Virus record (IMG/VR): IMGVR_UViG_3300045988_007060 | Span: 1-43,620 of that record | Direction: 5' to 3' (one strand) | Length of the DNA: 43,620 nucleotides | DNA from: a virus | Taxonomy: Duplodnaviria > Heunggongvirae > Uroviricota > Caudoviricetes | Shown: one piece after another, positions 598 through 34,083 of the stretch | How the letters are laid out: each line of letters starts with the position of its first letter | Numbering within the stretch: the stretch's first letter is position 1 | Notes under the pieces: generated by a model | Told to the model about the DNA's origin: nothing | The model's database searches: none | The model's input: the letters and a program-made list of their open reading frames with translations, nothing else | Translations under genes and position numbers: made by a program

Positions 598-637
598 TCG
601 ATAAGTGAATAGTATCCTATTATGTTGGGGTGTGCAA
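598..637. promoter_or_regulatory. overlapping divergent sigma70-like promoters with shared dyad operator
   Basis: - strand: TTGCAC(637-632)-N17-TACTAT(614-609). + strand: TCGATA(598-603)-N17-TATGTT(621-626). Shared site GTGAATAGTATCCTATTAT. Confidence 0.55.
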
Positions 638-802
638 GAGAATAGTTACATTGCCGTTGTGATTCTTTCGTTTCTTAAAAGAGTACGCAACGCAGTGGGT
701 GGGCGTTAGCCCACCCCAGCGGAGTGAAGTACTCTCTACCTTGCTCACGGCAACTATAGAAACTTTTAATTATCAGTGACTTGGGTATTTAGGCGGGATT
801 AA

Positions 803-946
803 CAATAGACTTTGGCCCTTCCGAAAGCGCCAGCGGAACTACACTCAAGTGCCTAATGGCACGCGTTGCGTTCCCTGCCGCTCCGCGGTCGCTTGCGATA
901 TCTCACAAGCTCAGTGAAGCTTAGCATATTTTTAAGTAAAAGTCAA
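803..946 (+). repeat. structured noncoding element, copy A (second copy at 33390-33532)
   Basis: Same-orientation similarity to 33390-33532 (shared blocks GGCCCTTCCGAA, AACTACACTCA, CGCGGTCGCTTG, CACAAGCTCAG, GAGCTTAGCA, AAAAGTCAA); hairpins GTGCC-TAAT-GGCAC (849-862) and AAGCT-CAGTG-AGCTT (907-922). Confidence 0.6.
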
Positions 947-4433: not shown

Positions 4434-4448
4434 TTTTAGAAAAGCCCG

Positions 4449-4477
4449 TTGACACGTGAATAGTTCGCTATTATAGT
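4449..4477 (+). promoter_or_regulatory. sigma70-like early promoter with embedded operator
   Basis: TTGACA(4449-4454)-N17-TATAGT(4472-4477); spacer carries GTGAATAGTTCGCTATTAT dyad. Confidence 0.65.
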
Positions 4478-4508
4478 TAGCACATACCAAACGAGAGGAG
4501 AGAAACAA

Positions 4509-5000
4509 ATGTTAGAGAAATTCTTAGTATTACTGGAACGTTTCGTGGTTGCACATGAACTGATTGCTGCGAATAGTGCGAAACAGTTCGCGCCAACTAC
4601 TGCCAAAGAGGCTGCCGCAGTAGCCGCACATAAAATTGAGCAGTTCTCTGAAAGTATTAAAGAAGAAACAAAAGAAATCCCGGTGGAAGGCGAAGACATC
4701 GTTGACACTAAACCAGCAGAAGAAGAGAAGCCAAAACGCAAGCCGCGTAAAGCTAAAGCAGAGGAGCCGACGCCAGAGCCGGAAGAAGAAGTCGATTACC
4801 AGTCTCTGCGCGACCAGATTCAGGCTATCGATGATGCGATTAACGAAGGCCCTAGCGACGCCGCGTGCGATGACTCTGATGAACTGCTGGAAGAGTTCAC
4901 CGGTAAGAAGATGAAGATTGCCGCGATTAAAGACGAAGACCTTGCCGAGTACCTGGAACGTCTGACGGCAATCAAGAACAAGTATTTCGAAGAAGAATAA
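4509..5000 (+). CDS. acidic early protein, unknown function
   Basis: GAGAGGAGAG RBS; E/D-rich sequence with a central K/R-rich patch; first gene after the early promoter. Confidence 0.6.
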   Translation: MLEKFLVLLERFVVAHELIAANSAKQFAPTTAKEAAAVAAHKIEQFSESIKEETKEIPVEGEDIVDTKPAEEEKPKRKPRKAKAEEPTPEPEEEVDYQSLRDQIQAIDDAINEGPSDAACDDSDELLEEFTGKKMKIAAIKDEDLAEYLERLTAIKNKYFEEE

Positions 5001-5810: not shown

Positions 5811-7108
5811 TTCTTAAAGAACGTGGCGGCAATAACGATGTGCACGCCTTACTGTCACCGTCAGGCGCTAAAAAGTGGCTAAGCTGTGCTGCATCACTGG
5901 CCTGTGAGAAAGATATTCCTAACACGTCCGGTAAAGCTGCGGTATTAGGCACAGCCATGCACACCATAGCGGAGGTCCATCTAAACGCCTATATCCGTGG
6001 CACTGCATTGCCGTTAGGGCGTGAAGTTGGCGCTTACGTGCTGGATGAAGGCAAAGGCCAGATTAAGGCGCTAATCAGCCCGATGAAAGGCGCGGTACTG
6101 ATTACGGCTGACATGATTGAGCAGGTGCGTAAGTACACCGATTACTGCAAAGCTATTATCGACGTGGCTACTTACGCCAAGCTGGAAATGTGCGTCAATC
6201 TTACTGAGGTATTGCATCCTGGCTACATTCATAGCCCTAACGGACGGCAAGAAGAACTACAGACATTCGGAACTTCTGACCTTGTTGCCGTACAGGAGAT
6301 GGCAAACACCGACGAGCACATGCTCATTATTGGCGACCTGAAAACAGGACGACATCGTGTCGAAGCGAAAGAAAACAAACAGCTTATGCTTTACGCTCTC
6401 GGTGTTTATCGCCGTCTCAAGAGACGTTATAACATAACAACTGTTCGTCTGGTAATCTTCCAACCGTACGCTGGTGGGGCGTCGGAGTGGGACATCTCGG
6501 TTGAAGGTCTGGAACTGTTCGCTAAGTTCGCACGGAAACGTGCACTGTTGGCGCTTGATGCATATTTCCGCGGCAAGAAGAACCTGAAAGCGTCGGACTT
6601 CAGGCCGTCGGTCGATGGCTGCCAGTGGTGTCGGTTCTCTGAACAATGCGCCGTGCGTACAAAGACGGTTAACGCAGTACTGGCAGAAGAACTGGAGGAC
6701 GACTTTGCACTGGAACTGACACCAGAGCAACTCGTAGCTGAGTACGAGAAGTTGCCGTTGTTGCGCCAGCACATCGACAAGGTTGAGAAAGCTATGGCCG
6801 CCGCTTTGCATTCCGGTAAGAAAGTGCCGGGGTATAAGCTGGTTGAAGGTCGTCCGGGTAATCGTAGCTGGAGTGATGAAAAATGGGTCGAAGAACTAGC
6901 AGCGCGCCATAACGTAGACATGGATTTGCTAACAAAGAAATCTGTTATGTCACCAACGGAAGCGGAAAAAGTGTTAAAAGGCGCGTATGCCAGGATGTGG
7001 GCCGAACTGGAAACGAAAGTTACTCGTAAGCCAGGCGCGCCATGCGTCGCAACGGCAGACGACAAACGGCCTGAGTGGAATCAGGTTAGTGAAGAAGATT
7101 TAGAATAA
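5807..7108 (+). CDS. PD-(D/E)XK Cas4/RecB-like exonuclease (DUF2800-type)
   Basis: IGDLKTGRHRV..QLMLYALGV nuclease core plus C-terminal Cys cluster DGCQWCRFSEQC; position upstream of DUF2815 and PolA. Confidence 0.75.
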   Translation: MILKERGGNNDVHALLSPSGAKKWLSCAASLACEKDIPNTSGKAAVLGTAMHTIAEVHLNAYIRGTALPLGREVGAYVLDEGKGQIKALISPMKGAVLITADMIEQVRKYTDYCKAIIDVATYAKLEMCVNLTEVLHPGYIHSPNGRQEELQTFGTSDLVAVQEMANTDEHMLIIGDLKTGRHRVEAKENKQLMLYALGVYRRLKRRYNITTVRLVIFQPYAGGASEWDISVEGLELFAKFARKRALLALDAYFRGKKNLKASDFRPSVDGCQWCRFSEQCAVRTKTVNAVLAEELEDDFALELTPEQLVAEYEKLPLLRQHIDKVEKAMAAALHSGKKVPGYKLVEGRPGNRSWSDEKWVEELAARHNVDMDLLTKKSVMSPTEAEKVLKGAYARMWAELETKVTRKPGAPCVATADDKRPEWNQVSEEDLE

Positions 7109-7112
7109 AGTG

Positions 7113-7141
7113 TTGACACCTGAATAGTTAGCTATTATAGT
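7113..7141 (+). promoter_or_regulatory. sigma70-like promoter with embedded operator
   Basis: TTGACA(7113-7118)-N17-TATAGT(7136-7141); spacer CCTGAATAGTTAGCTAT. Confidence 0.65.
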
Positions 7142-7195
7142 TCTAATCACTGGCCGGGCAGTTTCCCGGAGTAAACTTAAAAGCGAGAAATCAAG

Positions 7196-7883: not shown

Positions 7884-10800
7884 ATGGCTAATTTATTGTA
7901 TCTTGATACCGAAACATTCTCTGAAGCTGACCTAAAGAAAGTAGGGTCATACGCATACGCGGAACACGCAACAACTGAGATTATAATATGTACATACGCC
8001 GTTGATGATGGGCCTGTAGAAGTATGGGATTGCACTTCCGAACCAGTAATGCCAATAAGCCTACGCGTTGCGCTACGTAATGTTATGCGCGGGCGTATGA
8101 GAATTGTAGGCCATAACTTTTTAATGTTCGACAGGCTAGTTATGAAGCACTGCTGGGGTGTGGATATCAAACCGAGAAATACCATCGACACTATGATTCG
8201 AGCGTTTCGTCACGCGCTGCCTGGGTCACTTGATGCGCTGTGCGAAGTGCTGGGCGTATCGGCGGACAATGCAAAAGACAAACGCGGCAAGGCGCTGATT
8301 CAGCGTTTCTCTAAACCGACGCCGAAGAACTACAAAATCCGTCGATACACCGCAGAAACACACCCTGACGAGTGGGCGCTGTTCATCAAGTACGCCGTGA
8401 GCGACATCACCGCGATGCGTGAAGTCTTCCATAAACTGCCGCGTTGGGGTAACTCCGAGTTCGAGGACCGTGTACTGGAGCTGGACCAGTTAATCAATGA
8501 CCGCGGGTTTAAGGTTGACGTCGCACTGGCGGAAGCCGCGATTGAAGCCGTGGAGAAGCACAAGGCACAGTTACAGGAAGAAGCCCAACGAAAATACGGC
8601 GGCTCGCTTACTGGTAAAGACTTCCTTCCGATTCTGCGTGAACTCGCACCCGCGCACCGCATCCATAACGCACAGAAGTCGACACTGAATGACCTGCTGG
8701 CAGACGATGATTTACCCGACGATGCTCGCATGATTATAGAAATGCGCCTCGGGGCCGCGTCCACCGCATCAACGAAATATAACCCACTGCTGTTGGGCCG
8801 CTCTTCTGACGACCGACGCCGCGGTTGCTTGCAGTACGGCGGGGCAAAACGCACTCTGCGATGGGCGGGTAAAGGCTTCCAACCGCAGAACCTCGCGCGC
8901 GGGTACTATCACGATGATGAACTGGATAAAGGCATTTCAGCGTTACTTAAGGGCCGCGCGCACCGCCGTTTTGATGTCGCTAAATTAACGGCATCGACGG
9001 TGCGTAGCTGCATCATACCGGAAGCAGGACATAAGTTTGTTGTTGCCGATTATTCTAACGTTGAGGGCCGAGGGCTTGCGTGGCTTGCAGGCGAAGAAAC
9101 CGCGCTAGATACGTTCCGCGCCGGGCTGGATATTTATTGCGTAACCGCAGGTAAGATGTTTGGCATGGACCCAGACGACATTAAGAAAGAACGTAAAGAC
9201 TTGCGCCAGATTGGTAAAGCGTGCCTTCACCGTCATACCCAAGTTTTGACCGATGGCGGATTTAAGGATATTATGGCGGTTACATCAACAGATAAAGTAT
9301 GGAGCGGTGAAAAATGGGTGAATACAAAAGGCGCGCACCTTATGGGGTGGAAACCGGTAATAAATGTGGACGGGGTGCTAATGACCGAAGACCACAAAAT
9401 CTTGGCGCATTCCTGGAAGCAGGCAAAGCAACTCGCTTCAAACAGATATATGATGGGCCTCGCCCTGGAGAGAGGTATGGACGCTTGGTTATCCTGCGCG
9501 AGTTACCAAAACGACAAGGCCAAAGACAACTACTCGTCCAATGTGATTGCGGGGGGATGCCGGGGCGGGTCTATTATGACAACGTCAGAGCGGGTAAAAC
9601 CACTCAATGCAACCGCTGCGCCCTTGAAGCAACAAAAAAATATCGTAAACAGTATTTCTGCTACGAAGACGCAATGCCGGATGATGCGCACAGAACGCGA
9701 TTACTCAACCGGCTGTCCGCGGCTATCACGCGAACAACAAGCCCCAGGGATAAGGGTTATAAAAACTATGGGGCAAGAGGCATCACGGTATTCGACCAGT
9801 GGAGGACTGATAAAAGGTCTTTTCTTAGATATGTTCAAACTCTGGAAAGCTGGGATGACCCGAACCTCGAAATGGATAGAATCGACACAGACGGTAACTA
9901 CGAACCTGGAAACATTCGGTTTGTCAGCCGTTCTGAAAACTGCCGAAACAGACGGCAAATACCCGAGCTTCAACGAAAGTATGATGCAGCCGTTGCCCGC
10001 ATTGCTGAACTTGAGCGGGAAATTAACCTACTGCGAGCCGGTGTACGACCTGATTGATGTGGAAGACGGCAACCGTTTTCTTATAGCCTCAGACTCTGGC
10101 TTTCTTGTGGCGCATAACTGCGAGCTTGGCCTCGGCTACGAGGGAGGCGTCGGAGCGTTCGTTACGTTCGCTAAAAACTTAGGTCTTGACCTTATTGAGA
10201 TGGCAAAAACAATGGACGGTACATTCCCGGGCCACATATGGGCCGCTACCGCACGCGGGTACGAGTGGGCACGCATCCAGGAAGCAAAGCGGCCACCGCA
10301 TCCAGGTGAAAAGGACGACAGACCATCGTATATTCTGGACAAGAAAGTGTGGCGCACATGTGACGCGATCAAGCGTATGTGGCGCGAGTCACACCCGGAA
10401 ACAGTAGCGTTCTGGCGGGACCTTAAAGACGGAATTTTAGCCGCTGTGCGCAATCCTGGTCGTGAATTTTGGGCGGGAGCACACTTGCGCAAGAATGGCG
10501 AGCGCGCTATCCGAATCTGGAGAACAGTAGAAACCGATTCATCAGGTAGGAAGGTTCCCGGTTGGTGGTTGTGTATGGAGTTGCCGTCAGGCCGTATCCT
10601 CTCGTATCCGGGGATCGGCGTTAGCGTGACAAAAGAAACAGACGAAGACGGACGGGTAAACACGAATGTGCGAATCAAGTACCAAGGTGAAAACCAGTTA
10701 ACCCGCCAATGGACTACCCTGTACACCCACGGCGGCAAAGCCTGTGAAAACATTGTTCAGGCGTTGTGCCGTGATTTACTAGCATATGCGATGATTAATG

Positions 10801-10979
10801 TTGAGGGTGGCGGGTATCCCATCGTGCTTTCGGTACACGATGAACTGGTGTGTGAAACTCCAGATACGCCTGATTACACGGTGGCTGAACTGGAAAAATT
10901 AATGTGTTCGCTGCCTGAGTGGGCTGAGGGGTTCCCGCTTGTAGCGGAAGGTGCGGAGATGAAACGTTATGCTAAGTAA
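7884..10979 (+). CDS. family-A DNA polymerase with 3'-5' exonuclease domain, interrupted by an intein
   Basis: Exo motif LYLDTETFS; motif A VVADYSNVEGRGLAWL; motif B split as RQIGKA / intein / CELGLGYEGG; motif C LSVHDELVCE. Confidence 0.9.
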   Translation: MANLLYLDTETFSEADLKKVGSYAYAEHATTEIIICTYAVDDGPVEVWDCTSEPVMPISLRVALRNVMRGRMRIVGHNFLMFDRLVMKHCWGVDIKPRNTIDTMIRAFRHALPGSLDALCEVLGVSADNAKDKRGKALIQRFSKPTPKNYKIRRYTAETHPDEWALFIKYAVSDITAMREVFHKLPRWGNSEFEDRVLELDQLINDRGFKVDVALAEAAIEAVEKHKAQLQEEAQRKYGGSLTGKDFLPILRELAPAHRIHNAQKSTLNDLLADDDLPDDARMIIEMRLGAASTASTKYNPLLLGRSSDDRRRGCLQYGGAKRTLRWAGKGFQPQNLARGYYHDDELDKGISALLKGRAHRRFDVAKLTASTVRSCIIPEAGHKFVVADYSNVEGRGLAWLAGEETALDTFRAGLDIYCVTAGKMFGMDPDDIKKERKDLRQIGKACLHRHTQVLTDGGFKDIMAVTSTDKVWSGEKWVNTKGAHLMGWKPVINVDGVLMTEDHKILAHSWKQAKQLASNRYMMGLALERGMDAWLSCASYQNDKAKDNYSSNVIAGGCRGGSIMTTSERVKPLNATAAPLKQQKNIVNSISATKTQCRMMRTERDYSTGCPRLSREQQAPGIRVIKTMGQEASRYSTSGGLIKGLFLDMFKLWKAGMTRTSKWIESTQTVTTNLETFGLSAVLKTAETDGKYPSFNESMMQPLPALLNLSGKLTYCEPVYDLIDVEDGNRFLIASDSGFLVAHNCELGLGYEGGVGAFVTFAKNLGLDLIEMAKTMDGTFPGHIWAATARGYEWARIQEAKRPPHPGEKDDRPSYILDKKVWRTCDAIKRMWRESHPETVAFWRDLKDGILAAVRNPGREFWAGAHLRKNGERAIRIWRTVETDSSGRKVPGWWLCMELPSGRILSYPGIGVSVTKETDEDGRVNTNVRIKYQGENQLTRQWTTLYTHGGKACENIVQALCRDLLAYAMINVEGGGYPIVLSVHDELVCETPDTPDYTVAELEKLMCSLPEWAEGFPLVAEGAEMKRYAK
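9222..10118 (+). mobile_element. intein in PolA motif B (299 codons in polymerase frame)
   Basis: Begins CLHRHTQVLTDGG, TxxH block GVLMTEDHKIL, ends VYDLIDVEDGNRFLIASDSGFLVAHN then Cys+1; central part in this frame looks like off-frame sequence. Confidence 0.8.
9314..10057 (+). CDS. HNH homing endonuclease encoded in the -1 frame inside the intein
   Basis: GERYGRLVIL, CDCG..CNRC, DRIDTDGNYEPGNIRFVSRSENCRN; GGAG 9 nt before ATG 9314; true start could be further downstream. Confidence 0.7.
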   Translation: MGEYKRRAPYGVETGNKCGRGANDRRPQNLGAFLEAGKATRFKQIYDGPRPGERYGRLVILRELPKRQGQRQLLVQCDCGGMPGRVYYDNVRAGKTTQCNRCALEATKKYRKQYFCYEDAMPDDAHRTRLLNRLSAAITRTTSPRDKGYKNYGARGITVFDQWRTDKRSFLRYVQTLESWDDPNLEMDRIDTDGNYEPGNIRFVSRSENCRNRRQIPELQRKYDAAVARIAELEREINLLRAGVRPD

Positions 10980-11335: not shown

Positions 11336-11616
11336 CCCCGGAGGGCAAGATTCAGAAATACGCAAAAGAACGATTCGAGGCCCTCGGTGGCCTCGTTCGT
11401 AAACTTTCCTACGAGGGGCGCTCCGGCGCTCCCGACCTGCTGGTAATTCTCCCCGGCGGCATCATCTGGTTCGTCGAGGTTAAGAAAGACGAAAACACGA
11501 AGCCAGACCCACACCAGTTACGCGAGCATGCGCGGATGTGTAAACGTGGTGCAAATGTTTTTGTCGTTGGCTCGTTCAAACAGGTTGACGACCTAATAGC
11601 GAACTATTATAGTTAA
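11332..11616 (+). CDS. VRR-NUC domain nuclease
   Basis: SGAPDLLVILPGGIIWFVEVKKD...GANVFVV resembles the VRR-NUC core. Confidence 0.7.
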   Translation: MTPEGKIQKYAKERFEALGGLVRKLSYEGRSGAPDLLVILPGGIIWFVEVKKDENTKPDPHQLREHARMCKRGANVFVVGSFKQVDDLIANYYS

Positions 11617-14252: not shown

Positions 14253-14279
14253 GAAAAGGGCCTTTCGGCCCTTTTTTTT
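14253..14279. terminator. bidirectional rho-independent terminator between convergent arms
   Basis: GAAAA-GGGCC-TTTC-GGCCC-TTTTTTTT. Confidence 0.8.
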
Positions 14280-17151
14280 ATAAACTCCACGCCGCCAGAA
14301 CAGGAGCAACCAGAGCGTCACCCCACTGCGCCCCGCCAAGCTCTCCGGGATGGACGTCATCAGGTAACGATACAGTCTGGACACCAGTATCACTGGTTGT
14401 TGTGATAGTTTCGTTCATTCCGTATTTGTAGCTCATCTGCGCCCATGCAGGCGCCACAATTATTTTCTCGCCAAGGCGATTGTCGAACTTCCTGACCTTC
14501 TCCGTTATCCATTTTGCAAAGTCAGGCCAATTCTTGGGTGCACTTGCTCCCGACCAGCCAAATGCCTGGTGAGAAATAACGAAACGGGAATCCGCTATTT
14601 TCTCACGGAATTTCGCAATCATGAACTCCTGCGCGTCGGCGGTCTGCTGCGGGGTGTAGTTATAATACAAATCATTGTATCCCAGTTGGATAACCACAAC
14701 CAGTTTGTCTGATGCGCTCACGCCAGCCGCTGCCATCCATGCCGTCACATCAAAAATGTGATACCCCTCCAGATTAGGGTTATCTGCATAGCTCTGCCCG
14801 GAGTAGGCTTTATCGAAGCAATACTGCGGATAAGCAGAGAAATCTGTGCTCGTAGCGTCACGCAGGAATGGCTGCGAGAAGTTCGTCTTCTGCGTCTTCC
14901 CGATGTAGTCGAACGTCGTCCAGCCACCACGACCGTCAAAAGGAATGCCTGCTGACGGTGTATTTGGCAGAGTGTAACCTCCCTCGTCCGTTATACCACG
15001 AGTGGTTCGGGAACCAGCACCTACGTAAGCAGCACCAGTGGCATTGATGGCGAAGTACAACCAAGGAACGCAACGTTCACCAAGTGAGTCCATAATAGTA
15101 GCGACTTTCACGTTACCGGTCTGAGTCGCCGCCAGTTTGGTGAACGCAGCTTTCTTACGAAATACATCCCCAGAACCATCAGCACGAGCATTAACGTTCA
15201 GCGTTGGTCCGTTGATTTCTGACGGCATTATCGTTGCGTCAGGCACAACATTTTTAAGTAATACTGGCTTTCCCTCATACCCATGACTGGACAGCACAAC
15301 GTCAGTATTATTTCGCCACGGGCGAGCACCACTGACCATATTGGCACCATAAAAACGCAATGGACGACCATCTACAGCATAAAAATATGCCGGGAAAATA
15401 ACGTCAGTATTCTGGTTAGTGACCTGCCCGTTTTCCAGTGCGGTAACTCTGGTGTTGAGTGAATCTGCGGACGTCATGAGTCCGTACAAAATAGCTGTGG
15501 CTGGGGTGAAAAATACCCCATCGGCAGAAACAGGAATCATCGTCACATCGGCTTGATACCCACCTGATTTTGCTGCTGAGTACACACCCCACCCAGAGAA
15601 AACCTGCCCCGAAGCTAATGCGAGGTCCACTTCATGATAATTACCGTCTGCAATGAGAGCCTTTTCATTTGCCCCCCACGCATTACCATTACGACTCTGA
15701 ATCTTCAGTGCCGCATTAGATGATGCAATTTTATACATCATCTTGACGGTTGAAACGCCAGATACTGGGGTGATTGTGTTCATCAATTGCTTATACGCGG
15801 TTCCGGCATCGGAAAGAGTATAGGTGTAAGGTGAACTGTTAACGAAAGAGTCGAAGGTAGAATCTTGTGACAAAATAGCAAGAACAGCATTGGCTGAAGC
15901 GATTGAAGAATATAGCGCGTCAATCTGTTCGGTCAGTGAGTTTTTCTGTCCGAAGTTTACCTCTGCAAATATACTCCCTGATGAAACTTCTGCTTTTGAG
16001 TAGATTTTAATCTGCTTAGTGTCTGCCGTAGCTGTCAGGATAACAGTCTGCCGTGCATCACCATTAGTCAATTGGACTTCGTCGCTGGTCCAGTTGCTAC
16101 CGTTGGCAAGTCGAGCGAATAAACGACCTGAAGTAATATCCAGCGAGTAGCTGAGCGTTACCTTCTCGCCTGAAGGAACGGAAGCGTTGGCGTACATTTC
16201 AGAGTATACGCCTGAAGCATTAGCGTAGTTCACGCGGTTGTTATTGACCTGGGAAAATGTGGAAAATGGATATCCGGTATTATTAACCCACGAATCCACA
16301 GAACCAATACGCACCTTCCCATTTAAACTGGAAATGCTATCCAGTGAGTTAAGAATTGCCGTGGTAATAGCATTTTTCTTCGATGCGTAGGCGATAATCG
16401 ATAACTGAACAGTGGTTGCAAGCCTTGTGTTCACCCCGATAGCCAGGAGCGTTGCGGTAGCTGCGGTAGCGGTAAGCTGCACTTCCTGCCAGTCATTTGA
16501 AGAGGTCAGCGTTGGCTGATTACTCACAAATGTGCCGTTCAGCGATGTTTTTAATCCAATGGTTGGGGCGCCTCCGGTTCCGCTGTATCTATAACGGACA
16601 GTGATAATGTCGCCCGCTGCAACTGTAGATAATAAAGCGGAGTAGGCCTCTCGGTACGCAATCGTATCTACTGCGGCTACGCTCATTGATACCAAGTTTT
16701 CGTTTGGCGATGAAAATGAATCAAATGAGTAAAGATTGTTATTAACCCACGAATCTACAGAACCAATGACCATTGATGCCCGTGAAGGCATTTTTCGGCC
16801 TGTGGCTGTCAAGACCCCGGCTACGTTCTGGTATTCCAGCGCCAATGCGCTGCCAGACGAATCTCTGATATACGTATAGGAATTTACTGGGATATTAGCT
16901 ATATCTGCCTGCGCGGCAGCAAGGTCCGAATATTGTTTGCTAAAAGGCACTACATTCAACGCAATATCATCAAGAACAGCTGGTAATGTTTTTTGCACCT
17001 GCCCTGTTACAGCGTTCGTTGCTTCGTCAATGTCAGCACCCCCAGCAACCCCACCGGATTTACCGGTAATGACCTCTGCCTCAAAAATCTGGTGTTTCTT
17101 GGCGGTCTGTAAATCCGCCAGGCTTAAAACGTCACCGCATCCGCTTGACAT
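14278..17151 (-). CDS. tail fiber with C-terminal SGNH/GDSL esterase domain
   Basis: AAAGAGGA RBS; C-terminal ~290 aa carry IMDSLG, LGYNDL and DDVHPGE (SGNH blocks); internal repeats GSVDSWVNN.LYSFDSFS and GSVDSWVNNTGYPFSTFS. Confidence 0.75.
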   Translation of the reverse strand: MSSGCGDVLSLADLQTAKKHQIFEAEVITGKSGGVAGGADIDEATNAVTGQVQKTLPAVLDDIALNVVPFSKQYSDLAAAQADIANIPVNSYTYIRDSSGSALALEYQNVAGVLTATGRKMPSRASMVIGSVDSWVNNNLYSFDSFSSPNENLVSMSVAAVDTIAYREAYSALLSTVAAGDIITVRYRYSGTGGAPTIGLKTSLNGTFVSNQPTLTSSNDWQEVQLTATAATATLLAIGVNTRLATTVQLSIIAYASKKNAITTAILNSLDSISSLNGKVRIGSVDSWVNNTGYPFSTFSQVNNNRVNYANASGVYSEMYANASVPSGEKVTLSYSLDITSGRLFARLANGSNWTSDEVQLTNGDARQTVILTATADTKQIKIYSKAEVSSGSIFAEVNFGQKNSLTEQIDALYSSIASANAVLAILSQDSTFDSFVNSSPYTYTLSDAGTAYKQLMNTITPVSGVSTVKMMYKIASSNAALKIQSRNGNAWGANEKALIADGNYHEVDLALASGQVFSGWGVYSAAKSGGYQADVTMIPVSADGVFFTPATAILYGLMTSADSLNTRVTALENGQVTNQNTDVIFPAYFYAVDGRPLRFYGANMVSGARPWRNNTDVVLSSHGYEGKPVLLKNVVPDATIMPSEINGPTLNVNARADGSGDVFRKKAAFTKLAATQTGNVKVATIMDSLGERCVPWLYFAINATGAAYVGAGSRTTRGITDEGGYTLPNTPSAGIPFDGRGGWTTFDYIGKTQKTNFSQPFLRDATSTDFSAYPQYCFDKAYSGQSYADNPNLEGYHIFDVTAWMAAAGVSASDKLVVVIQLGYNDLYYNYTPQQTADAQEFMIAKFREKIADSRFVISHQAFGWSGASAPKNWPDFAKWITEKVRKFDNRLGEKIIVAPAWAQMSYKYGMNETITTTSDTGVQTVSLPDDVHPGELGGAQWGDALVAPVLAAWSL

Positions 17152-26589: not shown

Positions 26590-27760
26590 ACGCGTAACTA
26601 ATACGTTGAATTACGATAGATGATTGATATTGATTGCCTGTGGACTGTCCTTCAATGGACTGAGTGATTGACTCAGGTCCGCCAATCTCTGGCGTAACCG
26701 CCGTAAGCTCTGCGCGTTTCAAACTGAAAGACATAGCACCGTTTACCCCAGCCAGAATAGAGTTAATCTCTACCTGCTGTTCGTTGATAAACTTCTGAAT
26801 CATAGCCATGTCGTACAGTTTGCCGGAGATAGAGAATGTGTTAGCTGCGCGGCTACGTTCCACAAAGGCCACGTTAGTGTTGCCGAGTTCGAACTGTGCG
26901 GACGCGCTGTTGTCGTTAGTGATGGTCAGACTGTCGCAACGCAACGGCGTAGACCCATCGAACACAGAAACGTCAACCGAGGAGAACGGCTCGTCACCAA
27001 ACGTAACGGAAGAGAAGTCGGAACCGGACGGCTGCTCGGTGAGAATCTCCTGACTGCGACCGATGAACGGGAAGCTGCCAGTTACCATCGCATTAACTGC
27101 CTGTTCAACGGTAAAACCCGAAACTTCAACGCCTTTGGTCAGCGTATATACACTGGCCCCTCCGCACTGGCCTTTGTACCAGGTGAGAATAGAGAACGTC
27201 TTACATTGGTTACCGGTTTCCAGTTTATCTCCAGTTTTGGCCGCGGTAGTGACAGTCTCCGCGGTAAGAGTGTGCTGGATACCTGCACCTGTTACCGCCA
27301 GTGCCTCTACCGCAGTAACGATAAACGGCTTAGCGTTGTCGCCCGTTAAGTCGGTAAACGCAATCAGGTCGCCCACTTCAACGCCGTCGGTAATAAAGCT
27401 ACCATCAGCACGGGTGAACGTCTTACCCGCCGGTGCAACGGTAATCGATAACCCTGACAGAGAAGCCCCTGACTGCCACGTAGAGCCTAAAGCGCCAGCC
27501 AGCCAGTCGTCCTGGCTTTTCGAGCTAAGCTCAATTGCGTATTCCCCGCTAACCTGCCTGTTACCGGTGCGGATGGATGTAGTTTCACGGCTGCCGTCCA
27601 GTTCGTTGGAGGCCAGCGTGTCGCGGGTAACGGCGGGAACACCGCCTGTGTTGCGCAACGGCGACCAGACCGGGTTATCAGGTGTTACGCCCGGGGTCAC
27701 TTCCGCCACATAGAATTGCGCGGTATTCGCGCCCTTAAAAGGAGTTGTAGCCATATTCAC
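26588..27760 (-). CDS. major tail (tube) protein
   Basis: AAGAGG RBS; 390 aa; position between tail terminator-like genes and chaperones. Confidence 0.65.
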   Translation of the reverse strand: MNMATTPFKGANTAQFYVAEVTPGVTPDNPVWSPLRNTGGVPAVTRDTLASNELDGSRETTSIRTGNRQVSGEYAIELSSKSQDDWLAGALGSTWQSGASLSGLSITVAPAGKTFTRADGSFITDGVEVGDLIAFTDLTGDNAKPFIVTAVEALAVTGAGIQHTLTAETVTTAAKTGDKLETGNQCKTFSILTWYKGQCGGASVYTLTKGVEVSGFTVEQAVNAMVTGSFPFIGRSQEILTEQPSGSDFSSVTFGDEPFSSVDVSVFDGSTPLRCDSLTITNDNSASAQFELGNTNVAFVERSRAANTFSISGKLYDMAMIQKFINEQQVEINSILAGVNGAMSFSLKRAELTAVTPEIGGPESITQSIEGQSTGNQYQSSIVIQRISYA

Positions 27761-28173
27761 AGCCTCTTGGTGAATGCAATAAAGTTAATTGACAATGGTC
27801 GTTTGGCCCATCCGTTTTCTACAATCAGCGGCCCCAGGCTAACCGATTGAACCTCGGCGCAGATGTCGTTACGTGAAAATGACTTACCTGCTTTAAACGC
27901 CGTGTTAAGTAAGTCTGCCATTTTATTGATTGGCGCGCTACCCTTCACCGATGCGTAGTTAATGTCGACCTGATAGACACCAGCGCGTTGTTCTGTGAAG
28001 AACAAATCCGCCTGCTCGGTATCCGCCAGCAACATGTAACTCGCCAGATACGGTGTATCGGTAGACGTCGGCGCGTCGATATTTTCAAGCGCAACCTTGA
28101 TGCCGTTGGTGTTTCCGAAGGCTACCAGCGGAACATCAAACGCTTTTGTTAAGTCCTCAAAGTAGCCCATCAT
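27757..28173 (-). CDS. tail completion/terminator protein
   Basis: Coupled small gene upstream of major tail. Confidence 0.5.
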   Translation of the reverse strand: MMGYFEDLTKAFDVPLVAFGNTNGIKVALENIDAPTSTDTPYLASYMLLADTEQADLFFTEQRAGVYQVDINYASVKGSAPINKMADLLNTAFKAGKSFSRNDICAEVQSVSLGPLIVENGWAKRPLSINFIAFTKRL

Positions 28174-28565
28174 TTCACCTTGTTGGCTTCTTCGTTAATG
28201 AGTTGCTGGAAACGCGATATATTAGTCCTTACCATACCTTGTGGGGCCTGTTGCGACCAGCCATACTCAAGCCGCTGTATATACGGCAGGTTATTGGTAA
28301 GTGTGAACTCGCCCCAGTCTGTAGCGGTGTTTATAACCGCAGTAACACGCTGTATAGTAGCCGTCCCTTGCGGTGCGCCGTAGGTCGTAGTTTCCTGCGA
28401 CGGGGTACTGCCTGACGCAAACCAGTTATTTCTCGCACGACCAGTATCAACTGGCGTCGCCTTTATGATAGCGGAAAACAGCTTGATAGACACCTGGCGC
28501 ATAACCTTCTCGGGATTCTTCTTCGCCTTTTCCACGAACTTAGAGACATCAAGCGCGAAACTCAT
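28170..28565 (-). CDS. head-tail joining protein (HK97 gp10-like)
   Basis: PVDTGRARNNW signature; AGGTGAGAA RBS. Confidence 0.6.
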   Translation of the reverse strand: MSFALDVSKFVEKAKKNPEKVMRQVSIKLFSAIIKATPVDTGRARNNWFASGSTPSQETTTYGAPQGTATIQRVTAVINTATDWGEFTLTNNLPYIQRLEYGWSQQAPQGMVRTNISRFQQLINEEANKVK

Positions 28566-28921
28566 TTTCTCACCTGAATAAAGTAGGTCACGGCGTCGTC
28601 GTTAACCATCTTCTTCTCAATAGCTACGACAGACCATTGCTCGCCGCCGAATTGCACCTTGTCTTCCATCTTAGGAACGACACTGCAATCGGCTTTAACA
28701 ATCATGTCGCCCGCCCGAATCGTCGTACCGTTTATCAGCCCCGCGTTTACCGGAACCGGAACCGCCTTCAACGGCAACACTTCATTAGCAGACCAGACGT
28801 ACTCACCAAGAACTTCATCCCACACTTTCGAGCCAGCGCGAATCAGAGATACCGTGCTACCAAATTTGGTTAGCAGGCGCGTACCAACGCCTTGCATACG
28901 TTTACTGAAAGTGGTGCTCAT
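28562..28921 (-). CDS. head-tail connector protein
   Basis: GGAGG RBS before ATG 28921; ATGA coupling. Confidence 0.5.
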   Translation of the reverse strand: MSTTFSKRMQGVGTRLLTKFGSTVSLIRAGSKVWDEVLGEYVWSANEVLPLKAVPVPVNAGLINGTTIRAGDMIVKADCSVVPKMEDKVQFGGEQWSVVAIEKKMVNDDAVTYFIQVRK

Positions 28922-29535
28922 CCGGCGGCCTCCAGTCTCGAAATAACCAGTAGTGCTGACGGGGCGGTACCCCATGCGGTTACCGTAGCCGCTTGCGGGT
29001 ATACGCCGCCGAAGTTAGTTCCAGCACTATCCCGCATAATCTGAACGGCAAACGTCTGGCCCGCGGTTGGGTTAATAACAACGCGGGACTCAATCGGGAT
29101 TGTGGTGTCGGCACTTACCAGTTTAGTAGCTGCTGGCGAGCCGTACTGAGCGCCGTTCAGAAGAATACGCGATAACAGGATAGACGTGCCGCTAGCACCC
29201 GTGCGCCCAGCCTGTAACTTGATGCGAACGGCGTAGTTACCCGCGGTGTTGAACGTAACCAGCCCGGCGGCATTAATCATTACCGGGTCAGATGCGCTAC
29301 CCTGAGCAGAGCCGAAAGTTAACTGCAATGCTGTATCTACTGCGGTAGGCGCTTGTACCACGGTCGACGCGGCGCGGAGAACTTCAACCTCTTTCACCCC
29401 AGGAGTGGCGTAAATAGGCGAGTCCGCCATCTGTGTCATTACTTCACGCAATGCGGCGGGGGTAATAAGTCCGGTGGTGTTATCAGGAAGGTTAGCACCT
29501 ATAAGGGTAAACATCTCTGTCTTAGTCTTCGCCAT
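28918..29535 (-). CDS. structural protein, unknown role
   Basis: ORF within the head-tail joining cluster. Confidence 0.45.
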   Translation of the reverse strand: MAKTKTEMFTLIGANLPDNTTGLITPAALREVMTQMADSPIYATPGVKEVEVLRAASTVVQAPTAVDTALQLTFGSAQGSASDPVMINAAGLVTFNTAGNYAVRIKLQAGRTGASGTSILLSRILLNGAQYGSPAATKLVSADTTIPIESRVVINPTAGQTFAVQIMRDSAGTNFGGVYPQAATVTAWGTAPSALLVISRLEAAG

Positions 29536-29537
29536 TT

Positions 29538-30050
29538 TTAACCCCGGTACACGTTAAATGAGAAGCCATTGTTAAGTCCGCCACACAGTAGCGGGCGTAA
29601 AGCGTCGTCCGCAGCGGTGATCGAGGTCGTAGCACCACTGTTGCCGTTGTTGAAGTATGTCACCGTTACTGCACCCTCTACACGCTCCGTCTGCACGGAA
29701 CGACCGTCTGAGTTGGCGCGCACTTCGGTGCCTGCGCCATATGTAACGGCGGCGATTACCTGCGCAAGAATTATCTGCTTCGGAATGACATTGTTTGCTA
29801 CAGGGAACCCATTTAGCGTTACGCCGGTTCGCGGGTACGCAAGAGACTGCTCTGCGGATACACGACGACCGCACATCTGCGGTTCTGCAAGCCCGACATA
29901 AGTAGCGCCGTTGCGCAAGGCCACCCCTGCCGCGGTATCGTCTTCCGGCAGCTCAAGACCATAATTAGCCGCTAACGCGCGGGCGTCAGCCAGACTAACG
30001 TAACTGTCAGCGCCAGGTACTATTGACCCATCTTCCACGATTAGCGGCAT
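29538..30050 (-). CDS. head-tail adaptor/connector-like protein
   Basis: AGAGGAA RBS; N-terminal MPLIVEDGS..ADSYVSLADA pattern typical of phage connectors. Confidence 0.5.
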   Translation of the reverse strand: MPLIVEDGSIVPGADSYVSLADARALAANYGLELPEDDTAAGVALRNGATYVGLAEPQMCGRRVSAEQSLAYPRTGVTLNGFPVANNVIPKQIILAQVIAAVTYGAGTEVRANSDGRSVQTERVEGAVTVTYFNNGNSGATTSITAADDALRPLLCGGLNNGFSFNVYRG

Positions 30051-30053
30051 AAA

Positions 30054-30233
30054 TTATTCCTCTGACTTACGGCGACGACGCTTAACACCACCGCCGTTGT
30101 TGTGCGCTTCTTCGCTGTCCGGTTGGGTCGCAACCAGTTCACCCGCTTCTACAACACCGCGAACCGGCATCACCTGACCGTCGACAACATCAACGTGGGT
30201 GTACTTTTCGCGGATTACGTAATTATCTGCCAT
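30054..30233 (-). CDS. small protein with basic C-terminus (59 aa)
   Basis: AAGGAAAGG RBS; below the ORF-track threshold; C-terminal KRRRRK. Confidence 0.3.
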   Translation of the reverse strand: MADNYVIREKYTHVDVVDGQVMPVRGVVEAGELVATQPDSEEAHNNGGGVKRRRRKSEE

Positions 30234-30269
30234 GACCTTTCCTTATTACGGCCCCGAAGGGCCGTTGCA

Positions 30270-30623
30270 TTAAGATACAGTTACTACGGAGCTACTGGAG
30301 ATAATATTACCATACACATCGTGAACAACCACTTTATACGTACCAGAATCGGTAGATGCAACAGTGGTGGCTTTGGTGTACGTAGCCGCTGTAGCGCCTG
30401 AGATGGCGTTGTTATCCTTGAACCACTGATAGGAATAAGGCGCCAGCCCACCGGTCGCCACAACGGTAAGGGTTAACGCGTTAGGTGCAGTAACAGCGGT
30501 AGTAGCAGCAAGCGCGGTAGAAAAAGATGCTGGCGCGATATTTGCCATGTCGATTTCAACCTGGCCGTCGGCGGGAGAGTCGTCAGAAACACCGGTAATA
30601 CGACGTTTGATTACATCAACCAT
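30270..30623 (-). CDS. Ig-like domain protein (possible capsid decoration)
   Basis: AAGGGGA RBS; Ig-like signature YSYQWFKDNNAISGATAATYT..GTYKVVV. Confidence 0.55.
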   Translation of the reverse strand: MVDVIKRRITGVSDDSPADGQVEIDMANIAPASFSTALAATTAVTAPNALTLTVVATGGLAPYSYQWFKDNNAISGATAATYTKATTVASTDSGTYKVVVHDVYGNIISSSSVVTVS

Positions 30624-30633
30624 TTTAATCCCC

Positions 30634-30888
30634 TTATGATTCGATTACACCGGCGGCGCGGAGTTGCGCCAGAAGTGCGTTTAGTTTAGTACCTACGGCG
30701 TTAACCGCAGTCTGCGCGGACGTAGCAACTGCGGCGGCCTCTTCACCAGTAACAGTTTGCGAGCCGATGTCAGTTACCGCGGCGCCTTTCTTAACCAGCC
30801 CAGCGGTTTCTGCCGTTGCTTCTGGCACAACACTGCTGAAATCGGTGTTCTCAAGGCTGCGCGGTAAGCCCTTTCCGGTCTTAGCCAT
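30634..30888 (-). CDS. small head-associated protein
   Basis: AAGAGGT RBS; directly downstream of major capsid gene. Confidence 0.45.
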   Translation of the reverse strand: MAKTGKGLPRSLENTDFSSVVPEATAETAGLVKKGAAVTDIGSQTVTGEEAAAVATSAQTAVNAVGTKLNALLAQLRAAGVIES

Positions 30889-30902
30889 AATTTACCTCTT
30901 AG

Positions 30903-30931
30903 TAAATGAAAAGAGGGACCGAAGTCCCTCT
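30903..30931 (-). terminator. hairpin terminator/attenuator after major capsid gene
   Basis: AGAGGGAC-CGAA-GTCCCTCT with T-rich tract on - strand. Confidence 0.6.
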
Positions 30932-30947
30932 CGATTATAACTTAACC

Positions 30948-31997
30948 TTAAGCACCTACACCAGTTACCAGGAAGGCAATCGGTACGTGCTTACGGTCAA
31001 CCACGCGGTTCCAGTTGGAGGCGTTCGCCAGGTCCTGCCAGGAGGCAGAGCGTGGGGTAGTCTCGGTGCCGTTACCGGTGATTACCGCGCTGGTGAAGCT
31101 GTAGCCCAGAGGATGCAGCAACCAAGTCTTGCGGGTCCACAGGGTTTCAACGCCACCACCGTTACCACGAGACGCTTCACGCTCGTATTCCAGCGGGTTA
31201 GACGGATTGCCTTCACCGTAACCGATAGCACCGTTGCCGAAGATGATAGAGATGAACTTGCGGCTCGGGCCAGTTCCGACCACGGTCATGCTGTCATCAA
31301 CAATCACACGGTAACCCTGGTAGGTGGCGAACAGGGTGTCGTTGTCGGCGTCTTTGATGAAGTCGATAAGCTGCTGCTTACGCGCCTGAGCATAAACGAA
31401 GCTGTGCATCGCAATAGCGCCCAGCACTTCACCGCCGTTGTCCATCAGCGCATCACCCATAGTCTGGGTAGCGTCGATGAATGCGCCTGCGTCAAAGCCC
31501 AGAGTAGCAGACACGTCGATAACCATGTCGTTCTGCTCGTGGTAAGCATCGGTAGCGGCTACGTTGTCGTTGTACAGACCGAGCGCGGTAGCAATAAGAC
31601 GACGTTGTGCCTGGCGCTGCCAGAAGTTATCAAGACGAGAAGCCACGGATTGCAGCGGATTCTCGCTGGTCAGTTCAACCGTCAGGTCTGCCTGGCCAAA
31701 GCCTTCGTTCAGGTACGCAACGCGCGCCATCATCTCACCGGTCTGCACATTACGCGGGGTAGCGATGTCCTGGTATACGTCGTTCGAGTAGTTAGGCTCG
31801 ATAGAGGTGTCAATCGCTTTCCAGAAAGGAATATTAGCGACGTTGGACGGGCCTCGGGCAATCTCGGCAGCGTATGGAGTCGGGGTAAGAATACCAGACT
31901 GGAAGAACGCGGTTTTTTCTACCGGGTCCTCTGTCATATAAGACGCAAGGACCGGGATGTTGCCAGTTACGATATCGCCGATAGTGGTAATTGCCAT
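30948..31997 (-). CDS. major capsid protein
   Basis: GAGGAAA RBS; 349 aa; preceded by coiled-coil scaffold gene. Confidence 0.8.
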   Translation of the reverse strand: MAITTIGDIVTGNIPVLASYMTEDPVEKTAFFQSGILTPTPYAAEIARGPSNVANIPFWKAIDTSIEPNYSNDVYQDIATPRNVQTGEMMARVAYLNEGFGQADLTVELTSENPLQSVASRLDNFWQRQAQRRLIATALGLYNDNVAATDAYHEQNDMVIDVSATLGFDAGAFIDATQTMGDALMDNGGEVLGAIAMHSFVYAQARKQQLIDFIKDADNDTLFATYQGYRVIVDDSMTVVGTGPSRKFISIIFGNGAIGYGEGNPSNPLEYEREASRGNGGGVETLWTRKTWLLHPLGYSFTSAVITGNGTETTPRSASWQDLANASNWNRVVDRKHVPIAFLVTGVGA

Positions 31998-33279: not shown

Positions 33280-33389
33280 GTTTCTCCTTTCTCGATAAGT
33301 AAAGCCCCGCCTTAAAGCGGGGCGCTAGTCCTTATCATTTAAACATAGAAACGGCGTAATCTCAGTAAACCAGTTACTTTTTACACAAG

Positions 33390-33532
33390 CAATAGAGTAT
33401 GGCCCTTCCGAACGCGTCAGCGTAACTACACTCAGGACTTACGTCCCGCTCCGTTACCTGCCCGCGCCGCGGTCGCTTGTTCATACTTCACAAGCTCAGG
33501 TGGAGCTTAGCACATTTTTAGTGAAAAGTCAA
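33390..33532 (+). repeat. structured noncoding element, copy B
   Basis: Homologous to 803-946; hairpins GGAC-TTAC-GTCC (33435-33446) and AAGCTC-AGGTG-GAGCTT (33492-33508); followed by palindrome AACTATTCGAATAGTT (33531-33546). Confidence 0.6.
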
Positions 33533-33584
33533 CTATTCGAATAGTTTATTCCAACATTTACAATTGAGAGGAATAACTGGAATA

Positions 33585-33603
33585 ATCACAGGCACTAAAA
33601 AGC
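33585..33603 (-). terminator. rho-independent terminator for the terminase-portal-head transcript
   Basis: GCCCC-GGAA-GGGGC followed by TTTTT on - strand. Confidence 0.7.
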
Positions 33604-33621
33604 CCCTTCCGGGGCTTCGCA

Positions 33622-34083
33622 TTATTCTGGCTTAGTGACATTCGCCGCTTTACTCACGGCCTCTACACCACCGGCATCAGTAACTTTCACGAAGTATTCA
33701 CCTACCGCATTAACCGTCAGAGACAAAGCCTCTTCTGGCGCATTAACCACTTCCTTTCCGTCTTTGTACCAGGTCAGAGCATACGGTGCTTTACCCGCCT
33801 TAACTTCAACCGTGATTACCGCGCTTCCGTCTACCAGTTCAGCGTCCTGCGGTTGCGCAGAGAAATACACGTCGCCAGCGTCCGCCAGATACGGAATCTC
33901 ATAAAGCATACCCGCGGCCGGTAGCGCAATACCGGTTTTATCCGCAAACGGCATATCATCTACCGGTGTGCCAAGTACACTTTCGTCTTCAATAAACACC
34001 ACGTTCTCGCCGGAGCCAGACACGCGGGCGTACTGGACTACGCGACGCGACGGTACGTCAGTTACTTTGAAAAAGCCCATCAT
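33622..34083 (-). CDS. Ig-like domain protein
   Basis: Coupled to head morphogenesis gene; APYALTWYKDGKEV Ig-like motif. Confidence 0.45.
   Translation of the reverse strand: MMGFFKVTDVPSRRVVQYARVSGSGENVVFIEDESVLGTPVDDMPFADKTGIALPAAGMLYEIPYLADAGDVYFSAQPQDAELVDGSAVITVEVKAGKAPYALTWYKDGKEVVNAPEEALSLTVNAVGEYFVKVTDAGGVEAVSKAANVTKPE

Follow-up and report, generated by a model that had tools for sequence, protein, structure and literature searches.

The 43,620-nt stretch of DNA analysed here (the window; IMG/VR record IMGVR_UViG_3300045988_007060) is, by its similarity to sequenced phages, the genome of a Kagunavirus-like siphophage (Guernseyvirinae). An original prediction, made from the letters alone, had pointed out two same-orientation homologous regions in it, 803-946 and 33390-33532 (copies A and B), as a structured non-coding element. 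The question raised by this locus is what the element is and what it could do for the phage. We found that each copy very probably consists of a promoter followed by a leader RNA with a selected structure, both on the minus strand. This leader-RNA family with its own promoter is real, strongly selected and previously undescribed. How it acts is less clear, and we tentatively favour an effect of the leader on its own transcription complex.

The two regions were indeed direct repeats, with 79.6% identity over 147 columns in blastn (E 2e-28) and 81.2% in a global alignment. Weaker homology, overlooked when the extent was put at about 145 nt, reached positions 749 and 33338 (71% over 213 columns), giving a unit of about 195 nt. 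Core motifs and a covariance model identified exactly two copies in the window, and neither motif searches nor the model found a third. Both copies were intergenic and non-coding, as had been claimed, with no open reading frame (ORF) common to both. The sole ORF crossing the repeat, which has 37 codons, lies in copy B, is annotated in phage Snoke and starts within the loop of the hairpin P1 described below; a coding role for it was rejected because copy A is without the start codon and relatives are frameshifted by 1-nt indels. A UUG mini-ORF after a Shine-Dalgarno-like GGAAGGG was also rejected, as its length varied from 1 to 19 codons and its start codon was sometimes missing. Small 'hypothetical protein' genes are annotated over the leader RNA in several deposited genomes (e.g. 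6449-6559 in Snoke, L003). These are probably spurious calls, and the annotation of this region is thereby corrected.

Each copy opened on the minus strand with a sigma-70-type promoter with an extended -10 element, TTGACT-N14-TGn-TAAGCT, with a 17-bp spacer. Among 44 distinct promoter sequences from two alleles, named Kagunavirus-type and SETP3-type, the -35 hexamer was nearly invariant and the spacer variable. The TG was kept (T in 43, G in 44), the next base was free (A in 5, C in 24, G in 9, T in 6) and TA(A/C)GCT was invariant. Little else was kept upstream in the SETP3-type allele, apart from T(T/A)GACT-N14-TGn-TACGCT. As read from the sequences, this pattern of conserved elements and a free spacer is the footprint of an extended -10 promoter of the sigma-70 class. 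A consensus promoter scanner flagged neither promoter, because TAAGCT fits only 3 of the 6 positions of TATAAT. This internal promoter is the part that had earlier been taken for a hairpin and an A/T-rich tail. The hairpin in question (AAGCT..AGCTT) had the same arms in both copies, copy B merely having one extra C-G pair, and it is made up of the -10 hexamer and the 5' arm of P1. Since its minus-strand 5' arm is the -10 hexamer, it is probably no RNA helix.

A side observation concerns the same place. Shortly after the start of transcription comes a stretch that is complementary to the -10 hexamer (TAAGCT..AGCTT; 907-923 and 33493-33509). In the SETP3-type genome L165 (about 2005-2035) the -10 element TACGCT is repeated 3 nt on and then followed by AGCGTA, the complementarity surviving a double change. 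An operator, a hairpin formed only in read-through RNA and a sigma-dependent pause element are possibilities.

In the leader RNA, of about 115 nt, a 5' hairpin called P1 was followed by P2, a long and irregular hairpin, and then by a purine-rich tail, GGAAGGGCC..UCUAUUG. P1 had 6-8 pairs, began 2-3 nt from the predicted 5' end and changed only from U-A to U.G. About 25 distinct P2 sequences, folded singly, all gave one architecture. From the base upward, this consists of CCG/CGG, a bulged C, a 6-pair helix opening with tandem G.U pairs (GGAGCG/CGCUUU in copy A), a small internal loop, CAG/CUG, a bulged G, a 5-pair helix (GGAAC/GUUCC in copy A), an asymmetric internal loop (5' G-R-A-G-C-G, 3' A-G-Y-G-U-A; with GAGUGUAG in copy A) and an apical stem of 4-6 pairs with a 4-6-nt loop (GUGCC-AUUA-GGCAC in copy A). 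P2 contains about 23 pairs, and bulges or loops break the helix every 3-6 pairs. Its unpaired nucleotides were invariant in both alleles, although the alleles otherwise share only about 50% of their sequence. Neither a pairing partner of the GGAAGGGCC tail nor terminator/antiterminator alternatives were found to be shared by copy A, copy B and the SETP3-type allele. In copy B, the P1 5' arm (GCUUGUG) recurred after the tail, permitting an alternative pairing, which was not so in copy A. UCUAU and ACUGAnAUUA, considered as dispersed protein-binding motifs, showed no enrichment in the window. A resemblance to the RfaH ops element (TAGCGT) was present in the SETP3-type loop only and was treated as coincidence.

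Selection on this structure was assessed with copies gathered from IMG/VR, metagenomes and loci around the capsid gene, which amounted to 47 distinct Kagunavirus-type sequences and 11 SETP3-type hits. In a plain MAFFT alignment, 91.5% of the cells were standard pairs and 48 cells carried double changes, compared with 14 in shuffled alignments, none of 500 shuffles reaching 48. A model-guided alignment of 48 distinct sequences was 95.9% paired. Double changes affected 9 of 29 pairs, a number reached by 184 of 500 shuffles and not significant by pair count. They occupied 93 cells, versus 23 after shuffling (0/500), and slid registers gave 0-2 pairs. When SETP3-type sequences were included (40 distinct sequences), pairing was 94.5% and 17 of the 29 pairs were compensated, in 136 cells (0/500 shuffles), the slid-register controls giving 28-43% pairing and 2-6 pairs; the covariation in related phages that had been proposed as a check was therefore found. 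Model-guided alignments lean towards structure; the MAFFT result and the independent single-sequence folds concur with them. Three Watson-Crick types were observed at single positions, pair 3 of the 6-pair helix being C-G, U-A or A-U, and pair 2 of the 5-pair helix U-A, G-C or A-U among relatives. The data strongly support a secondary structure maintained by selection, in copy A as well as in copy B. One hairpin of the original prediction (GTGCC-TAAT-GGCAC versus GGAC-TTAC-GTCC) turned out to be a genuine compensated helix, the P2 apical stem, of which relatives have five further versions. The longer compensated helix system of P2 had been overlooked.

The pairing was also informative as to the strand. 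In the minus-strand reading, the 48 distinct sequences contained 153 G.U cells and 10 A.C cells; standard pairing was 95.9% on the minus strand versus 85.5% on the plus strand, and the mean folding energy -42.1 versus -30.3 kcal/mol, the minus strand being more stable in 48 of 48 sequences. Because G.U pairs are frequent on one strand only, selection acts on RNA rather than DNA. Thus, where selection on RNA or DNA structure had been suggested, the compensatory changes in relatives bear out a selected structure and the strand asymmetry of the G.U pairs speaks against DNA. The description of copy A as preceding the first early gene had the orientation wrong. Its RNA is read from the minus strand, away from the early helix-turn-helix (HTH) gene at 1054, and both copies lie upstream of minus-strand operons.

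The window minus strand, which corresponds to the plus strand of the deposited relatives' genomes because these are in reverse orientation, carries two long gene strings (Table 1). String A comprises about 25 small genes, holins and the endolysin, and then the small and large terminase subunits, the portal, a MuF-like head protein and a Hoc-like protein. Its continuity across the window ends assumes a complete, circularly permuted genome (43,620 bases, compared with 41-45 kb for related complete genomes). String B encodes the i- and o-spanin, the scaffold, the major capsid protein (30948-31997), the connector, tail genes and the tailspike, and is interrupted by a plus-strand gene block (24332-26560). 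From 1054, the plus strand carries replication and early genes. The closest relatives of the window are vB_EcoS_fFiEco02 and fFiEco03 (about 96% identity across 600-1300); Salmonella Jerseyvirus phages are also related.

Table 1. Positions of the two promoter-leader modules and of associated features in the window (strand: -, minus;., not assigned to one strand).
Feature	Position	Strand	Remarks
Copy A -35 hexamer TTGACT	941-946	-	Read from sequence; nearly invariant in relatives
Copy A extended -10 TGcTAAGCT	918-926	-	TG 925-926, hexamer 918-923
Copy A predicted start, G912 or A911	911/912	-	From the usual 7-nt spacing
Copy A P1, GCUUGUGA-GAUA-UCGCAAGC	891-910	-	100% of cells paired; U-A to U.G changes tolerated on minus strand only
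Copy A P2	821-888	-	Single-sequence folds, covariance model, pair counts
Copy A single-stranded tail AAGGGCCAAAGUCUAUUG	803-820	-	GGAAGGGCC and UAUUG kept in both alleles
Copy A second conserved block CACUGAUAAUUAAAAGUUUCUAUAGUUGCC	749-779	-	Homologous to 33341-33367; kept in K1G
Hairpin GAGUAC..GGGGUGGGC-UAAC-GCCCACCC..GUACUC, then UUUU	677-736	-	Terminator-like, downstream of copy A
Second promoter TTGCAC-N17-TACTAT	609-637	-	AATAG..CTATT palindrome; directly before first gene (ATG 583)
String A	~583 leftwards, then 43620 down to 33622	-	Headed by copy A
Hoc-like gene	33622-34083	-	Last gene before bidirectional terminator
Bidirectional terminator closing string A	33595-33617	.	After Hoc-like gene; Snoke annotates a terminator there
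Palindrome CTATTCGAATAG abutting copy B -35	33533-33544	.	Centred about -42; absent at copy A
Copy B -35 hexamer TTGACT	33527-33532	-	Sequence and conservation in relatives
Copy B extended -10 TGcTAAGCT	33504-33512	-	Sequence and conservation in relatives
Copy B predicted start, G33497	33497	-	From spacing
Copy B P1, GCUUGU-GAAGUAUGA-ACAAGC	33475-33495	-	Covariance model and pair counts
Copy B P2, apical stem (C)GGGAC-GUAA-GUCC(UG)	33408-33472	-	Single-sequence folds, covariance model, pair counts
Copy B tail AAGGGCCAUACUCUAUUG	33390-33407	-	Sequence and alignment of relatives
Copy B second conserved block ACUGAGAUUACGCCGUUUCUAUGUUU	33341-33367	-	Homologous to copy A block
Hairpin GAUAAG..GCCCCGC-UUUAAG-GCGGGGC..CUUAUC	33294-33336	-	Core 33304-33323 plus UUUACUUAU scores terminator-like
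String B	33279 down to 14278	-	Headed by copy B
Strong terminator GAGAGGGAC-UUCG-GUCCCUCUU plus U run	30911-30932	-	Directly after major capsid gene; no promoter space downstream

Both leaders run into terminator-like hairpins in the window. Snoke-type relatives have another hairpin at the site downstream of copy A, GGUGCC-UUCG-GGCACC followed by a U-rich run. As a side observation, their site A leaders (L003, about 37880-37900, and L061) contain a (CTCA)n microsatellite of variable length before GGTGCC-TTCG-GGCACC, which is absent in the window. The hairpin preceding the spanin genes has about 18 pairs and abuts the i-spanin ribosome-binding site (GGAG 33284-33287, ATG 33279). As there is no room for a promoter between this hairpin and the ribosome-binding site, operon B has to be transcribed from the copy B promoter or from upstream. 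The SETP3-type allele keeps the hairpin by compensatory changes (GCCCGGC/GCCGGGC; outer UAUACG/CGUAUA). More intrinsic minus-strand terminators are found inside both operons (30932-30911, 42981-42960 and 39009-38993); the total terminator count in the window showed no excess over shuffled sequence. How much capsid protein is made relative to the downstream proteins is probably determined by the terminator following the capsid gene.

The Kagunavirus-type allele was present in 181 phage records, mostly of E. coli phages and some of Salmonella phages. It had 223 matching places, which implies about 40 genomes with two copies. The SETP3-type allele occurred once per genome in 268 records, nearly all of them Salmonella phages, and altogether about 450 sequenced genomes have the module at the head of their structural operon. 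This number, and the fact that the module is better conserved than the capsid gene, make it likely that it is central to late gene expression. Copy B, at the spanin-scaffold-capsid-tail operon, was near-universal in the group, and copy A, at the small-gene, lysis and packaging operon, was restricted to about 40 genomes. Copy A is a secondary duplicate, and to this extent the possibility of a recent promoter-fragment duplication, raised in the original prediction against the element, was justified; yet the unit is a promoter with a structured leader, and the structure is selected. K1G has another promoter and leader in place of copy A, and their junction with the shared downstream block is at GUCUAUU. 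That genome (L002, 37510-37580) also has three tandem copies of CCGTATAACTGACCGCAGGCTTAT downstream of the operon's first genes.

The copy B leader (33498-33280) showed 97-100% identity to the Salmonella phages LSPA1 and SETP13 (100% in its 3' half), versus 71-88% for the flanking genes. Its identity to SETP3-type phages, whose capsid genes are equally distant, was about 50%. These values point to two alleles that are strongly constrained and horizontally exchanged. Two recombinants (L056 and L074) carried an A-type P2 at site B, which indicates that the copies are functionally interchangeable. Searches outside phages gave no match in 5,426 E. coli genomes and, in 100,044 bacterial and archaeal species genomes, 16 pattern hits, 2 of which matched the model. 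A bacterial-chromosome origin was rejected, as both model hits look like stray phage DNA, one on a 738-bp scaffold and the other on a 6.2-kb contig binned in a Bacillota metagenome-assembled genome. The Rfam search suggested as a check matched no known family, at gathering thresholds for the whole window; in E-value mode, both loci gave chance-level matches only, and the best sub-threshold scores were 16.2 bits for wcaG (threshold 42) and 15.8 bits for OrzO-P (threshold 60). We found nothing on the element in the literature, where the Golestan paper merely counts predicted promoters and terminators.

We considered how such a module might act. Each copy is very probably one minus-strand transcription module, in which a conserved structured leader directly succeeds an extended -10 promoter for host sigma-70, and the two modules head the two long late operons on this strand. 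The leader would fold on leaving RNA polymerase and act in cis on its own transcription complex, much as the put RNAs of phage HK022 do. Polymerase would then pause and terminate less often, both at the terminator-like hairpin next in line and at the intrinsic terminators within the operon. The finding of the same unpaired nucleotides in two alleles that are otherwise about 50% alike implies a conserved partner, which might come from the host (RNA polymerase or some other factor) or be a conserved protein of the phage. A put-like action is favoured by the location of the copies at the very start of two long, terminator-containing operons, by the fact that they work regardless of the downstream gene, and by the bulge-rich, specific shape of P2, which is not a plain duplex and looks like a poor substrate for double-stranded-RNA enzymes. 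By analogy, then, the leader may be a cis-acting element on the elongating polymerase, though we would call this role possible rather than probable. As a whole explanation, a promoter and a leader acting in put-like fashion on its own transcription complex is the one that we tentatively prefer.

The put family is the closest functional analogy. HK022 has two related sites, putL and putR, which directly follow the promoters of long operons, with putL at the 5' end of the transcript; put RNAs are about 70 nt long, form two bulged irregular stem-loops, act in cis and contain no ORF. The present element resembles them in its two copies, its promoter-proximal position at long operons, its bulged irregular stem-loops and the lack of an ORF, cis action being here a prediction. 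In the Kagunavirus-type copies, P1 and P2 at the predicted 5' end total about 100 nt, versus about 70 nt for put with its two stem-loops, and the whole leader is longer still (about 115 nt). Unlike put, it occurs in a virulent Guernseyvirinae phage rather than a lambdoid one, and in most relatives the late structural operon has the only copy. The put RNAs bind the zinc-binding domain of the beta' subunit of RNA polymerase independently of factors and suppress pausing and termination, which for the leader could apply by analogy only.

Several observations weigh against the put-like explanation. No sequence or structure-model similarity to put was detected: when HK022 22000-31000 (from IS903 to the O gene, where putL and putR are expected, put being unannotated) was searched with covariance model R1 with filters off, the best score was 5.4 bits (E 4.7), and homology to put was rejected. 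The strong terminator after the capsid gene differs from what full put antitermination would give and suggests that the operon B polymerase is not fully terminator-resistant. In the SETP3-type allele, P1 is reduced to at most 3 pairs or absent, and the pre-spanin hairpin is without a U run, so that a leader terminator is not a conserved feature. K1G and most relatives manage without copy A, and more distant relatives (capsid proteins 83-91% identical) are missing the element altogether, their scaffold gene being preceded by a plain promoter with a short hairpin. Finally, the only Kagunavirus RNA sequencing in the literature (K1B4) is at gene level.

Alternatively, the leader might be an mRNA processing or stability element that governs how long the mRNAs of the long operons last and how they are translated, P1 capping the 5' end and P2 and/or the pre-gene hairpin being cut (e.g. 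by RNase III) or blocking exonucleases. This role, which we consider possible, is nearly as likely as the put-like one. It is consistent with the position of P1 2-3 nt from the predicted 5' end, with the extent of pairing in P2 (about 23 pairs) and in the pre-spanin hairpin at the ribosome-binding site (about 18 pairs), with the maintenance of the latter by compensatory changes while its U run was not kept, and with the capsid-gene terminator. The RNase III sites of phage T7 (e.g. R0.3, early leader) are likewise irregular hairpins that are conserved, measure about 60 nt, contain an internal loop and show compensatory changes, and P2 is like them in being an irregular leader hairpin kept by compensatory change. 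Unlike these sites, P2 has many bulges and invariant unpaired bases, and there are one or two sites per genome, always at the head of an operon and none between genes. Its interruption every 3-6 pairs, with unpaired bases invariant, is not that of a generic double-stranded-RNA substrate. Moreover, P1 is not kept in the SETP3-type allele, and the second promoter downstream of copy A would yield transcripts without the element. Next in likelihood come a factor- or ligand-dependent attenuator and a small RNA. The former, which we hold to be unlikely, would make the leader a platform for a trans factor (a phage protein, as with lambda N and nut, or a riboswitch-like ligand) that gates the following hairpin and times the late genes. 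The conserved loops and junctions on covarying stems are an aptamer-like pattern, a hairpin does lie between the leader and the first gene, the GCUUGUG repeat of copy B would permit an alternative pairing, and a near-consensus promoter would otherwise fire the late genes immediately. Yet this pairing is missing from copy A, neither a boxA (one mismatch allowed) nor an Rfam riboswitch match was found, ten scanned proteins included no candidate RNA-binding protein, and the same conserved nucleotides in both alleles favour a conserved rather than an allele-specific partner.

Each copy could also be a stand-alone small RNA gene, with a promoter, an RNA of about 205-235 nt and a terminator, the product acting in trans or being a by-product like lambda 6S RNA. 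The stretch from the copy B promoter to the terminator-like hairpin (about 205 nt) is conserved throughout at 97-100%, and copy A ends in a hairpin and UUUU before a separate promoter for the genes. This explanation is improbable, as operon B needs read-through, no promoter lying between the hairpin and the spanin ribosome-binding site, the SETP3-type allele is without the U run, the 3' halves of A and B differ, and no match occurs in E. coli genomes. If the element acted purely as DNA, whether as an origin, a packaging structure or a duplicated promoter whose inverted repeats are operator-like, the RNA fold would be incidental. This could account for the inverted repeat over the -10 and start in both alleles, with its double change (TAAGCT/AGCTT versus TACGCT/AGCGTA), for the palindrome abutting the copy B -35 and for the HTH gene adjoining copy A. 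Such a role is largely refuted by the 17 compensated pairs out of 29 and by the G.U asymmetry (153 versus 10), which DNA hairpins would not tolerate, and we consider it very improbable. Among the candidates put forward in the original prediction, which made a sensible list, a cis-acting put/nut-like RNA, a processing site and a small RNA thus stay live; the same two observations disfavour an origin or a DNA site for protein binding.

Other phage systems were compared with the module. Like lambda nutL and nutR, it provides two RNA sites near promoters, one per operon, with cis action again a prediction. Unlike these, it has no short boxB-type hairpin, no N-like protein was identified, and boxA (GCUCUUWA, one mismatch allowed) was not found on the minus strand of 749-946 and 33338-33532. 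Copy B resembles the lambda PR'-6S-tR' region in its strong, constitutive-looking promoter, untranslated leader of about 200 nt, terminator-like hairpin, Rz-like spanin and structural genes. A -10-like repeat at the start site and a nearby HTH gene are reminiscent of the lambda Q region and of AlpA, for whose promoter/terminator system a principle of promoter-proximal antitermination is set out in PMC9371919. A terminator of the kind bypassed by Q or AlpA could be seen in the hairpins following both window copies, the SETP3-type allele having its hairpin without a U run. In contrast to the Q and AlpA systems, which do not rely on one, the leader has a covarying RNA fold, and the promoter spacer differs between the alleles. 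No Q or AlpA homolog was found among the ten proteins scanned, which are encoded in the early region and at the beginning of operon A, and the relatives' annotations name no Q-family protein. The early 60-amino-acid protein (1054-1236) matched the generic Pfam family HTH_17 (E 1.6e-8); an AlpA-like identity was not supported, this match being generic only and AlpA being absent from its PDB matches.

Kagunavirus and Jerseyvirus phages are among the most often isolated phages of E. coli and Salmonella, and therapy and biocontrol work makes use of them. The leader belongs to an RNA family that is uncatalogued, covaries clearly and exists in nature as two alleles and as recombinants, which makes it tractable for experiments. 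If the leader acts on RNA polymerase, the put paradigm would extend beyond lambdoid phages. It is rather unlikely, though conceivable, that P2 and the tail represent a second, non-homologous class of polymerase-modifying nascent RNA needing no phage protein; if so, this class would have arisen in virulent Guernseyvirinae siphophages, and RNA-only control of elongation would not be peculiar to a few lambdoid phages. If the leader is instead a processing or stability element, it could be a useful portable leader for expression design.

Further features were noted in the window. Promoter-like repeats GTTGACAC-TGAATAGTT-GCTATTATAGTT (TTGACA-N17-TATAGT) occurred on the plus strand at 4448-4478, 7112-7142 and 11584-11614, upstream of genes starting at 4509, 7196 and 11647, with an AATAG-N4/5-CTATT palindrome that spans the spacer and the -10. 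A palindrome of this type also occurred at 597-627, in the second promoter downstream of copy A (609-637), and is likely an operator for a phage HTH regulator. The half-sites of CTATTCGAATAG, next to the copy B promoter, match the palindromes of this promoter family and are degraded in the variants L068 and L077. Divergent from the copy B promoter, a promoter-like TTTACA-N18(TG)-AATAAT on the plus strand (33557-33586) runs into the bidirectional terminator. On that strand, fFiEco03 and Snoke have an inserted sliding-clamp-like gene at the equivalent position, so that the site could be the remnant of a promoter or a hotspot for insertions. The DNA polymerase A ORF (7884-10979, plus strand) encodes 1031 amino acids, versus about 730 in fFiEco03 and K1G, and Pfam covers only residues 63-185 and 370-446; an insertion, such as an intein or a mobile domain, is possible. 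Lastly, a 56-nt direct repeat with 77% identity (16253-16308 and 16712-16767) lies inside the tailspike gene (14278-17151) and probably reflects an internal duplicated protein segment.

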